A stretch of DNA of 64,000 bases from Patescibacteria group bacterium (GTDB lineage Bacteria > Patescibacteriota > Microgenomatia > UBA8517): NCBI GenBank assembly GCA_026416845.1, contig JAOAEL010000005.1:229-64228 (forward strand). Direction: 5' to 3'. Shown piece after piece: positions 3,155 to 7,682 of this stretch. Both the position numbers and the translations under genes were made by a program. Every line of letters starts with the position of its first letter. The first letter of the stretch is position 1. The notes beneath the pieces were generated by a model. That model was not told where the DNA came from and did not search any database. It saw only the letters and a program-made list of their open reading frames with translations.

Positions 3155-4354
3155 CTAAACAATAATTTTTGTTACAACACCTGCTCCAACAGTATTTCCA
3201 CCTTCACGAATAGCAAACCTAGACTGCTCTTCTATAGCTATAGGGACTATAAGCTTTACTTTCATTTTTGCATTATCGCCAGGCATAACCATTTCTATAC
3301 CTTCTGGCAAAGTAATTTCACCAGTCACATCTGCTGTACGAATAAAGAATTGAGGCTTGTAACCTGAAAAAAATGGTGTGTGTCTACCTCCTTCTTCTTT
3401 AGAAAGAATATAAACTTCCGCTTCAAATTCAGTATGAGGAGTAATAGTACTTGGAGCAGCTAAAACTTGACCTCTTTCTACTTCATTTTTATCGACTCCT
3501 CTTAACAACACACCTACATTATCTCCAGCCATTGTTTCATCTAAAGTTTTCCTAAACATTTCTAAACCAGTAGCTACAGTTTTTTTTGTTTGACTAATGC
3601 CTACAATTTCTACTTCTTGATTTACACTAAGCTTACCTCTTTCAACTCTACCAGTAACAACAGTACCACGACCTTGTATAGAAAAAACATCTTCAATTGG
3701 CATTAAAAAGGGCTTGTCAACATCTCTAACTGGTTCCGGAATAAACTCATCTACAGCTTTCATCAACTCTAAAATTGCTTCTTCAGCTTTTTTATCGCCT
3801 TCTAAAGCTTTAGTAGCTGAAACTCTAATAATAGGAGTTTTATCTCCAGGATAGCCATATTTAGTTAAAACACTTCTAATTTCTTCTTCTACTAATTGAA
3901 CTAATTCTTCATCTTCTACCAAATCAATCTTGTTAAGTGCAACGACCAAAGACGGAACATTAACTTGACGAGCTAATATAATATGTTCTCTTGTTTGCGG
4001 CATTAATCCATCAGGAGCCGAAACAACTAATATTGCTCCGTCCATTTGAGCAGCACCTGTAATCATATTTTTAATATAATCAGCGTGCCCTGGAGCATCT
4101 ATATGAGCATAATGTCTTTTCTCAGTAAAATACTCTACATGAGTAATATTTATTGTAACTCCTCGCTGCTTTTCTTCAGGAGCGTTATCTATCTCGTCAA
4201 AAGCAATAGGCTTTGTTTCATTACCTGGCTGCCTAGACAAAACCGTAGCTATAGCGGAAGTAAGTGTTGTTTTGCCATGATCAACATGACCAATTGTACC
4301 TATGTTTACATGAGGCTTTTTTCTATCAAATTTTTGTTTTATATCTCCTGCCAT
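3155..4354 (-). CDS. tuf: Elongation factor Tu
   Basis: [26 protein letters not shown]. True start is ATG 4354 ([15 protein letters not shown]); the ORF-track extension to 4468 is not EF-Tu-like. Confidence 0.98.
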
Positions 4355-4510: not shown

Positions 4511-6673
4511 CTAGGCTTGATTCCCTTTATTAGCAGAGATTATATTATTTGCAATATGCGCTGGAACTTCATCGTAATGAGATGGCTCCATATAACAAGA
4601 AGCCCTTCCTTGCGATATTGATCTTATCTTGGTAACATAACCTGCCAACTCCGCGAGAGGAGCATAACCATTTATAAATACCAGGTTGCCCTTTTTTTCT
4701 GTTCCGGATATTTGCCCACGTTTACTAGAAATATCACCCATAATATCACCCATAAATTCTTCTGGCGTGCTTACTTCAATGCGCATTATCGGCTCTAGAA
4801 GCACCATATCAGCATTTTTTGCAGCCTCTTCCACAGCTAAAGAGCCTGCTATTTTAAATGCCATCTCTGATGAATCTACTTCATGAAAACTTCCATCATA
4901 AACTGTGACTTTGATATCAGTTACCGGATATCCTGCCAAAATACCACGATCGAGCTTTTCTCTCACGCCTTTCTCGACAGCTGGAATATATTCTTGAGGA
5001 ATTACTCCACCTTTTATTTCAGATGCCCAAGCAAAACCTTCTCCTCGCCCTAGTGGTTCGACACGCACATAACAATGTCCGTATTGCCCACGACCGCCTG
5101 TTTGGCGAATATATTTTCCTTCTCCAGTGGCAACTTTCTTAATTGTCTCTTTATAAGCAACTTGCGGCGCTCCAGTTTTCGCATCTACCCCAAACTCTCG
5201 TTTCATGCGATCCACCAAAATTTCTAATTGCAATTCTCCCATTCCAGAAATAAGAGTTTGCCCTGTTTCAGGATTGGTTTTGATTTTAAATGTTGGATCT
5301 TCATCAGATAACTTTTGAAGAGCCAAACCCATTTTTTCTTGATCAGTTTTGGTGGCTGGTTCAATCGCTAATGATATGACTGGTTCAGGAAAAGAAATAG
5401 ATTCTAAATGAATCGGGTGATTTATATCTGTAACCGAATCTCCAGTAGATGTGTCACGAACTCCAACTACAGCAACTATTTCTCCTGCAAAAGCTTGTTC
5501 TATCAGCTCCCTCTGATCTGCATGCATCAAAACCAGTTTCCCAATACGCTCAGTCTTTTGTTTTGTCACGTTATATACTACATCTCCTACCTTTAAAGTG
5601 CCCGAATAAATACGCACATAAACTAATCTACCAACATGAGGATCGGTAACCACTTTAAATGCCAAGCCGGAAAATGGTTCATTATTGCTTGGGCGCCTTT
5701 CTTCCTCTACACCTGTTTTAGGATTTATTCCTTTTATGGGCGGTAAATCATTCGGAGAAGGCAAATACTCAACAATGGCATCCAAAAGAAGTTGCACAGT
5801 AGCCATTCTGTTATCACCACCCAAGATGGGGAAAAACTTACCCTTTATAGTGCCTGCACGAATCGCTCTTTTGATCTCAGCCTGTGTAGGCTCTTGACCT
5901 TCCAAATATTTTGCCAAAAGATCATCGTCAAACTCAGCAACACGCTCGATTAACTGATTTCTATAGTTTTGCGCCATTTCTAAAAGGTTGTCTGGTATTT
6001 CTTCTTCTGTAAGATATTTGTCTTCTATGCCTTTATACGTAAAAGCCTTCATTTTAATCAAATCCACCGCCCCCCTTAATTCATGTTCTAGCCCTACAGG
6101 TATTTGGATGGGAGCGGCATTTGCTCCTAATCTTTCACGTATTGAGTCAATACTACCCTCGAAATCGGCGCCTATCAAATTAAGCTTGTTTAGGATACAC
6201 ACGCGAGGAACGTTATACTTATCCGCCTGACGCCAAACTGTCTCTGATTGGCTTTCAACTCCTGTTCTACCATCAAAAACCATCACAGCGCCATCCAAAA
6301 CCCTCAATGAACGTTCTACTTCTGCAGTAAAATCAATATGACCAGGAGTATCAATTATATTGATTCGATAACGACCTGAATCTACACAACTTTCATCTTG
6401 CTTAAGCTCCCAAAAAGTGGTAATCGCGGCAGAGACAATTGTAATACCGCGTTCTCTTTCTTGTTCCATCCAATCTGTCACGGTATCACCTTCTGTCACA
6501 TCACCTTTTTTGTAAGTTTTACCAGTTTCATAAAGAATTGTCTCTGTGGTAGTTGTTTTTCCGGCGTCAATATGAGCAATAATTCCTATGTTTCTTATCT
6601 TGTCCATGGGGAGATCTCTGTCCTTTGTGGACGATACAACCAACGCACCTTTTTTCTTTACTGCTTGTGCCAT
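4511..6673 (-). CDS. fusA: Elongation factor G (atypical G4/G5 motifs)
   Basis: AHIDAGKTT, ERGITI, DTPGHIDF, GMGELQLE, GGRGQYGH, SFHEVDSSE; position between rpsG and tuf. Confidence 0.98.
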   Translation of the reverse strand: MAQAVKKKGALVVSSTKDRDLPMDKIRNIGIIAHIDAGKTTTTETILYETGKTYKKGDVTEGDTVTDWMEQERERGITIVSAAITTFWELKQDESCVDSGRYRINIIDTPGHIDFTAEVERSLRVLDGAVMVFDGRTGVESQSETVWRQADKYNVPRVCILNKLNLIGADFEGSIDSIRERLGANAAPIQIPVGLEHELRGAVDLIKMKAFTYKGIEDKYLTEEEIPDNLLEMAQNYRNQLIERVAEFDDDLLAKYLEGQEPTQAEIKRAIRAGTIKGKFFPILGGDNRMATVQLLLDAIVEYLPSPNDLPPIKGINPKTGVEEERRPSNNEPFSGLAFKVVTDPHVGRLVYVRIYSGTLKVGDVVYNVTKQKTERIGKLVLMHADQRELIEQAFAGEIVAVVGVRDTSTGDSVTDINHPIHLESISFPEPVISLAIEPATKTDQEKMGLALQKLSDEDPTFKIKTNPETGQTLISGMGELQLEILVDRMKREFGVDAKTGAPQVAYKETIKKVATGEGKYIRQTGGRGQYGHCYVRVEPLGRGEGFAWASEIKGGVIPQEYIPAVEKGVREKLDRGILAGYPVTDIKVTVYDGSFHEVDSSEMAFKIAGSLAVEEAAKNADMVLLEPIMRIEVSTPEEFMGDIMGDISSKRGQISGTEKKGNLVFINGYAPLAELAGYVTKIRSISQGRASCYMEPSHYDEVPAHIANNIISANKGNQA

Positions 6674-6764: not shown

Positions 6765-7241
6765 TTACCATCTAAAATGAGCAAATGCACGATTTGCTTC
6801 GGCAATTTTTTCAACTTCTTGTTTCTTTTTAACTGCTCCTCCTTCGTTTCTAGCAGCATCTATAATCTCAGCCGCCAACTTTTCTGCAAAAGTGTGGAAT
6901 TCTGAATTAGACCTTGATCTTGCAGCAAGAATTAACCATCTTATTGCAAGCGATTCCTTGCGAGAACCTTTAACCGCAACTGGCACCTGATAGGCAGCAC
7001 CCCCCACTCGACGCGCTCGAACTTCCATTTGTGGTTTTATGTTTTCAATAGCATCGGCAAAAACACGCATCGGTTCCTCTCCTTTTTGTCTAATTAACTC
7101 AAACGCTTTATAAATCTGCTTTTCTGCAACTGATTTTTTGCCATCTTTCATAGCACGATTTATTAGTTTGGTAACTAACCTGTTTTTATAAATCGGATCT
7201 GGTGCCACAAATCTAATTTTGATTACACCTTTTCTTGACAT
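6765..7241 (-). CDS. rpsG: 30S ribosomal protein S7
   Basis: DGKKSVAE, RRVGGAAYQVP, AEANRAFAHFRW. Confidence 0.98.
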   Translation of the reverse strand: MSRKGVIKIRFVAPDPIYKNRLVTKLINRAMKDGKKSVAEKQIYKAFELIRQKGEEPMRVFADAIENIKPQMEVRARRVGGAAYQVPVAVKGSRKESLAIRWLILAARSRSNSEFHTFAEKLAAEIIDAARNEGGAVKKKQEVEKIAEANRAFAHFRW

Positions 7242-7253
7242 AGTTATTTAGTT

Positions 7254-7682
7254 TTAAACTTTGACAATTGGGCTGCTATCTTTTTTAGCTCCATAGATAC
7301 TTCGCGATGTTTTTCTTCCAATTACTCCTTTTGCATCAAATTTAGCTCTTACAATTTTATACTTTACACCTGGAAGATCTTTCACTCTACCGCCACGCAC
7401 TAAAACAATTGAATGCTCTGCTAAATCATGTCCTTCTCCAGGGATATAAGCTGTAACTTCCTGTTTATTAGATAGTCTAACACGAGCAACTTTTCTAAGA
7501 GCTGAATTGGGCTTTCTTGGAGTCATCGTACGAACAAGCAAAACTACACCTCTTTTGAAAGGAGAAGGTATCTCTTTAAAGACACGATCTTTCGCATTAA
7601 ACCATTTTCTCAGACCCGCCTTTTTATACTTACGAACCTGAGCCTTTCTACCTTTTCTAATTAATTGAGATATCGTTGGCAT
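7254..7682 (-). CDS. rpsL: 30S ribosomal protein S12
   Basis: [30 protein letters not shown]. Confidence 0.98.

Follow-up and report, generated by a model that had tools for sequence, protein, structure and literature searches.

An elongation factor G of Patescibacteria with linked changes in the G4 and G5 motifs, likely exchanged as a segment of fusA

Introduction

Translation factors are taught as strict GTPases, with the Asp of the NKxD (G4) motif as the guanine determinant. In canonical G domains one oxygen of this Asp, that on the N1/O6 side of the base, is hydrogen-bonded to the G5 Ser. The engineered Asp to Asn change at G4 of EF-Tu, D138N, is said to make the factor xanthine-specific. 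The nucleotide site of EF-G includes Asp140 and Lys138 (PMC3045518), and Ypt1 with the Asp to Asn change alone fails to bind either GDP or GTP and is inhibitory to growth (PMC2120555). Natural and constructed departures from guanine reading have also been described: the ATPase SpoIVA, which descends from a GTPase, no longer has the G4 Asp and carries Asn, Asp or Ser at the G5 Ser position, and an Era with disrupted NKxD plus SxE preferred ATP (both PMC7952092); YchF, whose G4 is altered, works with both nucleotides (PMC10144078); and in models of V. cholerae FeoB with an adenine nucleotide the G5 Ser bonds the G4 Asp (PMC11406355).

Here we analyze the EF-G of a Patescibacteria group bacterium (assembly GCA_026416845.1), encoded in a stretch of 64,000 nucleotides of contig JAOAEL010000005.1, referred to as the window, in which both motifs are rewritten. 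Proteins and genes with NKxN at G4 are called Asn-type and those with NKxD Asp-type.

Results and Discussion

The fusA gene and its context

The str operon order rpsL-rpsG-fusA-tuf is kept in the window, with a single fusA between rpsG and tuf (Table 1), and no ORF of at least 60 aa is inserted in the operon on the operon's strand. An earlier note on this DNA had raised the possibility that a canonical EF-G elsewhere performs translocation; tblastn finds no second canonical fusA in the genome (1.08 Mb, 96.8% complete). With TIGR00484, the EFG I equivalog model, the protein reaches 991 bits (cut-off 659), and it falls below the cut-off of all the EF-G2 models (532 vs 890, 483 vs 1000 and 582 vs 597 bits). 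It has the EFG I Pfam domain set and, in a predicted model, the full five-domain fold. Prediction from the single sequence reaches a pLDDT of only 35; the model built from 129 Asn-type-only sequences has a mean of 83, with 87 over G4 and 91 over G5, and all 50 structural matches listed for it are EF-G or EF-G-ribosome entries. Named homologues belong to Woesebacteria, Microgenomates and Patescibacteria. As the only EF-G found in the genome, it is supported as the housekeeping translocase.

Table 1. Features of the fusA region, in positions of the window.
Feature	Positions	Strand	Remarks
tuf	3155..4354	-	EF-Tu, canonical NKID and SAT
fusA	4511..6673	-	EF-G, 720 aa; sole copy found in genome (ORF list, tblastn, TIGR00484)
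Approximate mosaic segment	5759..6283	-	residues ~131-305, holding DG[KR], G4, G' insert and G5; tree conflict with rest of gene; ends uncertain by tens of codons
G5, GGDNR	5807..5821	-	residues 285-289; Asp287 in place of Ser, Arg289 invariant, loop shortened by one residue
G4, NKLN	6179..6190	-	residues 162-165; Asn165 (codon AAT, 6181-6179) replaces the guanine-reading Asp
Third linked site, DGR	6266..6274	-	residues 134-136; DG[KR] in all Asn-type
G3, DTPGH	6338..6352	-	residues 108-112; catalytic His, canonical
G2/switch I, ERGITI	6437..6454	-	residues 74-79; canonical
G1 P-loop, AHIDAGKT	6554..6577	-	residues 33-40; canonical
rpsL and rpsG	6765..7682	-	upstream of fusA; presumed identities, named from sequence (rpsL 7254-7682, rpsG 6765-7241)

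Motifs of the nucleotide pocket

The earlier note had described canonical G1, switch I and DTPGH together with NKLN at G4 and GGDNR at G5, all of which are confirmed, G4 and G5 at the positions it gave. Its alignment of GSA with GGD, which would put the new Asp in place of Ala, is off by one. The register comes from aligning the profile of 58 Asn-type G domains to that of 83 Asp-type ones, in which [C/A]-G-[S/T]-[A/S]-L of the Asp-type faces G-G-D-[G/S/N]-R of the Asn-type, so that Asp287 occupies the Ser position; the stretch 282-298 has 17 residues in 58/58 Asn-type and 18 in 83/83 Asp-type domains. Two further linked features, DG[KR] at 134-136 and the invariant Arg289, had escaped that first inspection. 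K163, the G4 Lys, is invariant in the 129 Asn-type sequences. EFG I is characterized by NKxD at G4 and gSAx at G5, where this protein reads NKLN and GGDNR, and given its departure from NKxD we file it as a variant, not as an ordinary EFG I member. In the same genome EF-Tu (NKID and SAT), IF2 (TKID) and BipA (NKID) keep the G4 Asp, in agreement with what had been noted for the first two.

Sequencing error, the other doubt raised at the outset, is ruled out by the relatives: Asn at G4 and Asp at G5 are found in 151/151 sequences, made up of 121 proteins and 30 loci and including this gene three times. A contig from a second study has unchanged G5 codons and stops short of G4, and run X1 matches fully but may be the source of the assembly.

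Residue 45 (6539-6541), a conserved Arg after the start of the P-loop helix (TER), is Thr in this EF-G; the site, which lies outside the mosaic segment, is Gly, Ala or Ser in most Asn-type and Arg in 82/83 Asp-type proteins. A family search of the own genome (G000) returned a small GTPase set composed of a YchF-like protein, IF2, BipA, EF-G, EF-Tu and one weak match, the first being C22, which we take to be YchF-like; LepA, Era, Der and Obg were not found by this search in the 96.8% complete assembly.

Distribution across Patescibacteria

Among 40 relatives, the genome's own family (f1) is Asn-type in 24/24 and a second family (f2) in 11/11 cases; f3, of the same order, is canonical in 3/3, as are two further families. 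An even sample of the class contains 12 Asn-type among 150 typed genomes (of 151 searched, one gave no match; the unpublished genome G100 is among the canonical rows), and an even sample of the phylum 58 among 134 typed, Saccharibacteria included (149 searched, 15 missed by the pattern). The 73 families of the phylum sample divide into 27 with Asn only, 43 with Asp only and 3 mixed. A pattern scan with one genome per species gives about 2200 matching stretches, as extrapolated from 4 of 64 parts; EF-G accounts for 118 of the 119 stretches returned, mostly with Saccharibacteria titles, the other titles being WWE3, Berkelbacteria, Doudnabacteria, Dojkabacteria and Woesebacteria. The organism of one Saccharibacteria locus (L135) has been grown in co-culture. 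A search of open PubMed Central and bioRxiv listings and abstracts found no description of the variant, which is real, widespread and apparently undescribed.

Six Asn-type loci are titled Gammaproteobacteria or Bordetella; the five of them that hold the full gene are 73-85% identical to other Asn-type loci in the sample, so the six are treated as likely mislabelled and no occurrence outside Patescibacteria is claimed. One 'Clostridia' match is a chance match. A phage carrier was rejected, the viral scan having returned two loci, both with a canonical pocket; these (L107, L108) lie on two large viral contigs, and their EF-G is about 43% identical in the G domain. Other unusual fusA genes were met along the way: family f24 (L098-L104) has a P-loop AHIDGGKT, switch I TDSM and G5 GAAW, and the fusA matches L105 and L106 (G076:C9) lie in two frames, which reflects a frameshift or an assembly error.

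Linkage of the sites

The earlier note had proposed aligning relatives to see whether NKxN co-varies with an Asp at G5, and it does. Across 140 genes, 57 carry NKxN, GDxR and DG[KR] at 134-136 together, 78 carry NKxD with G[STA][AS] and lack DG[KR], and five carry NKxD, a canonical G5 and DGK. Mixed G4/G5 states are absent (0/140), with G5 Ser, Thr or Ala in 83/83 NKxD proteins, and DG[KR] occurs in 57/57 Asn-type vs 5/83 Asp-type genes. GDxR is also present in all 78 readable G5 motifs of the all-species pattern sample. The 40 columns that best separate the two types all lie between residues 45 and 295. When metagenomes were scanned for Asn-type genes that lack the G5 Asp, 26 matches came back, of which 25 are GDxR and one is broken.

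The sole exception seen to the pairing is an EF-G of genome G327 (L458/L497, G327:C1:727983-728014) with NKLN and GGNAR, hence with no acid at either base-reading site. It is one of nine typed in its family and, as a singleton, could be an error; a metagenome pattern search for further GGNxR variants gave 0 matches.

Asp-type EF-G with DGK, NKLDA[IT]G and a canonical G5 is found at L084, L087, L089, L091, L092, L094, L096, L278, L279, L463, L464, L475 and L476. These loci are possibly reverted hybrids, possibly a precursor state. Where such genes stand beside Asn-type sisters (f59, f112, f97) they may be reversions, with a direction that could be either way.

A mosaic segment in fusA

Trees of different parts of the gene disagree on how often the type has changed (state changes counted on FastTree trees, motif columns removed where in range). 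The tree of domains II-V (138 rows) takes 18 changes, at least 10 of them forced by strongly supported branches, that of residues 24-130 takes 16, and four later windows along the gene take 15-20. Residues 131-200, 171-282 and 196-282, by comparison, take one change each and residues 222-282 three, and the tree of the whole G domain unites the 58 Asn rows with support 97. The operon neighbours behave as the flanks: a tree of rpsL, rpsG and tuf, for 94 genomes with at least two neighbours, takes 12 changes, at least 5 forced, vs one for the middle segment. The drop from 18 changes to one or two over residues ~131-305 makes it likely, from sequence comparison, that a segment of about 500 bases of fusA has been exchanged repeatedly between distant lineages by recombination.

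AU tests on 30 taxa, hand-picked after the earlier trees were seen, reject a single Asn clade on the flanks (p 2e-62) and keep it on the middle (p 0.59); on the middle, the arrangements for f59 (p 0.023) and for f1 with f3 (p 0.006) are rejected. Pairs with flanks at least 80% identical, which are not independent of each other, have middle identities of 61-99% when of the same state (93/93 pairs) and of 48-56% when of opposite state (13/13). In the flank tree, f1 and f2 fall within a clade of their class that comprises 19 Asp and 12 Asn rows. In the middle tree these 19 Asp rows remain together and the 12 Asn rows group with Asn types from other classes, hence the simpler reading for the lineage of this genome is that the Asn segment was imported.

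Alternatively, transfer played no part: the pocket and G' changes would have arisen convergently many times, or two old paralogous alleles would have been sorted with their flanks homogenised. Fourfold-degenerate synonymous sites are saturated and leave transfer and convergence inseparable, family f67 falls among the Asp types, outside the Asn group, in two IQ-TREE quick trees (two changes, without strong support), and within the Asn types the middle partly tracks the flanks (Spearman 0.69), all of which would fit such a history. We consider it improbable nonetheless, given that the grouping persists on residues 196-282, which are free of motif columns, that the one-residue deletion is common to the Asn types, that no searched genome (own, relatives, class and phylum samples) had both types, and that the Asp and Asn middles of the class part as described.

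EF-Tu variants

EF-Tu has also departed from NKxD in part of the phylum. In another class, the one that holds f67, 18 of the 35 EF-Tu genes read lack NKxD and 14 lack the Asp itself, several having no acid at the G4 Asp or the G5 Ser position. Among the loci concerned (L413-L417, L453-L467 and L483-L486, from f67, f126, f127, f132, f133 and f136), the degraded G4 reads NKFG, NTFG, NDFG, NKFP, NVFG, NVYP, NIFE, NVFD or NIFD, and the G5 Ser is often replaced by Asp or Asn. IF2, LepA and BipA retain NKxD in five f67 genomes despite their degraded EF-Tu G4. As f132 and f136 have an Asp-type EF-G, the degradation of EF-Tu does not track the EF-G state; EF-Tu encoded beside an Asn-type fusA keeps the G4 Asp in 27/29 cases.

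Nucleotide specificity

The explanation we prefer, tentatively and with a little less than even confidence, is that the coupled changes carried on the probably mobile segment of about 500 bases (Asn165, Asp287, Arg289, Arg136 and the shorter G5 loop) would let the sole EF-G accept ATP, either in addition to GTP or in its place. SpoIVA and the rebuilt Era are precedents for such a shift, and the EF-Tu variants of the other class and the G327 EF-G offer a parallel. With an Asp at the Ser position, the amide NH2 of Asn165 would be pulled toward the N1/O6 side of the base, so that a donor would face N1 and a carboxylate acceptor would lie beside position 6, which is what adenine needs, and not guanine or xanthine. 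N1 acts as a donor in guanine and as an acceptor in adenine (PMC11594714), hence the rebuilt pattern would fit adenine. Since a lone Asp to Asn change abolishes GDP and GTP binding in Ypt1, the G5 changes would have to restore the use of an abundant triphosphate, which argues against XTP. Single changes should be harmful, and G4 and G5 must then travel together, on a tract that spans both and takes G' along. That exchange recurred suggests a functional difference between the two pockets. A possible benefit would be to evade low GTP or (p)ppGpp; genomic correlates lend it no support.

Several points speak against acceptance of ATP. The hydrogen-bond argument presupposes the canonical geometry, in a loop that is one residue short; the G4 Lys, replaced in SpoIVA and YchF, is kept; and Asp287 is almost invariant, its SpoIVA equivalents being loosely constrained. 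In one survey, an acid (Asp/Glu) outside NKxD reads guanine in 20.5% of 298 GTP complexes (PMC11594714), and the shortened loop may bring Asp287 onto the guanine edge.

In a second explanation, which we hold to be only slightly less likely, the pocket is compensated and still GTP-selective: Asp287, or the Asn165 carbonyl held by Asp287, would read guanine N1/N2, and Arg289 would stack on the base. The near-invariance of Asp287 and Arg289, the retention of the G4 Asn and Lys, the persistence of GDxR in 25 of the 26 metagenome matches (the remaining one broken), and the NKxD Asp kept in the cell's other translation GTPases are all consistent with it, and the small residue (G/S/N) after Asp287 could hold a backbone NH on O6 (PMC11594714). 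Against it, Asn165 has the same size as Asp and would still fill the Watson-Crick edge, some EF-Tu variants and the G327 EF-G lack an acid at both sites, and a purely neutral swap fails to explain repeated exchange confined to cases that differ in state. With a GTP pocket the spread would be due to an effect of the segment on GDP or (p)ppGpp affinity, on L7/L12 contact via G', or on inhibitor sensitivity.

The lack of a metabolic correlate of the state is also consistent with GTP selectivity. Ndk is present in 52/58 Asn-type vs 70/76 Asp-type genomes, RdgB family matches in 22/58 vs 38/76 and the GuaA domain in 6/58 vs 14/76, with no difference or association in any of them (the RdgB and GuaA family searches pick up distant relatives as well). 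RelA/SpoT occurs somewhat more often in Asn-type genomes (48/58 vs 48/76, naive p 0.02), which would fit a GTP-selective pocket as well, but the trend is lost on 8 independent pairs (median p 0.5). Among the readings offered by the earlier note, ATP use, base reading by the G5 Asp and altered (p)ppGpp sensitivity are not told apart by these correlates. Loss of Ndk as a driver is ruled out: this genome carries Ndk, together with Gmk and RelA/SpoT, and the types do not differ. With the Asp kept in EF-Tu, IF2 and BipA, and Ndk and Gmk present, the GTP supply is not visibly cut. The Ndk match (G000:C2:13671-14189) comes in two pieces within one 215-residue frame, that is, with an insert, as in most Patescibacteria Ndk matches.

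An XTP or ITP specialist fed by deaminated purines, a reading that the earlier note had drawn from engineered Asp to Asn GTPases, is very improbable: RdgB-family and GuaA genes were not found in this 96.8% complete genome, as such a factor might favour, but an RdgB-family match is present in 22/58 Asn-type genomes, XTP pools are normally very low and would not sustain a factor that acts at each codon, and Asp287 would be expected to repel the amide carbonyl orientation that xanthine needs. The analogy itself lacks support, for although the G4 substitution equals Ras D119N (PMC7952092) and Ypt1 D124N (PMC2120555), those mutants alter the G4 Asp alone, with neither GDP nor GTP bound by the lone Ypt1 mutant, and here the G5 Ser has become Asp as well.

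Returning to acceptance of ATP, its broadest form, which we regard as unlikely, would have much of Patescibacteria carry an ATP-preferring EF-G whose pocket spread as a recombining cassette and, with the EF-Tu of one class separately deprived of guanine read-out, elongation there run largely on ATP.

Implications

A natural, essential EF-G without the G4 Asp, estimated to occur in roughly two thousand species-level genomes that include Saccharibacteria, makes it possible to ask directly whether GTP itself is required for translocation. If ATP is accepted, translocation would no longer be tied to GTP pools, nor probably to (p)ppGpp, and the protein would provide an orthogonal factor for in vitro translation; if the pocket is GTP-selective, it would represent a second natural solution to guanine reading. 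Either way, the likely recurrent swapping of part of fusA between classes calls for caution in the use of EF-G as a phylogenetic marker in Patescibacteria.

Comparison with known systems

With canonical EF-G (EFG I, TIGR00484; T. thermophilus 1DAR, S. aureus 2XEX) the protein shares operon position, length, Pfam set, G1-G3, HMM score and predicted fold; it differs in that 1DAR reads NKMD and GSAL, in place of which it has NKxN, GDxR, a one-residue deletion and DG[KR] at 134-136. The G4 Asp to Asn change is common to it and to the engineered, xanthine-specific Ras D119N and Ypt1 D124N, whereas the present variant is natural, fixed in families and the sole copy, and its G5 is always rebuilt (Ser to Asp in 57/57). 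SpoIVA and YchF/OLA1, ATP-using descendants of GTPases, share the loss of the G4 Asp, with N, D or S at the G5 Ser position in SpoIVA (PMC7952092); however, the G4 Lys has become S/T in SpoIVA (PMC7952092) and M/L/V in YchF (PMC10144078), while this EF-G keeps it. In the promiscuous V. cholerae FeoB, G4 and G5 jointly set base choice, as they would here, but FeoB keeps the G4 Asp and the G5 Ser (PMC11406355). EFG II (EF-G2) also has a diverged G domain, and its members are extra copies with a relaxed G2 and conserved NKxD at G4 and gSAx at G5 (PMC3150367); the present EF-G, in contrast, is the sole copy, with RGITI intact and with G4 and G5 changed.
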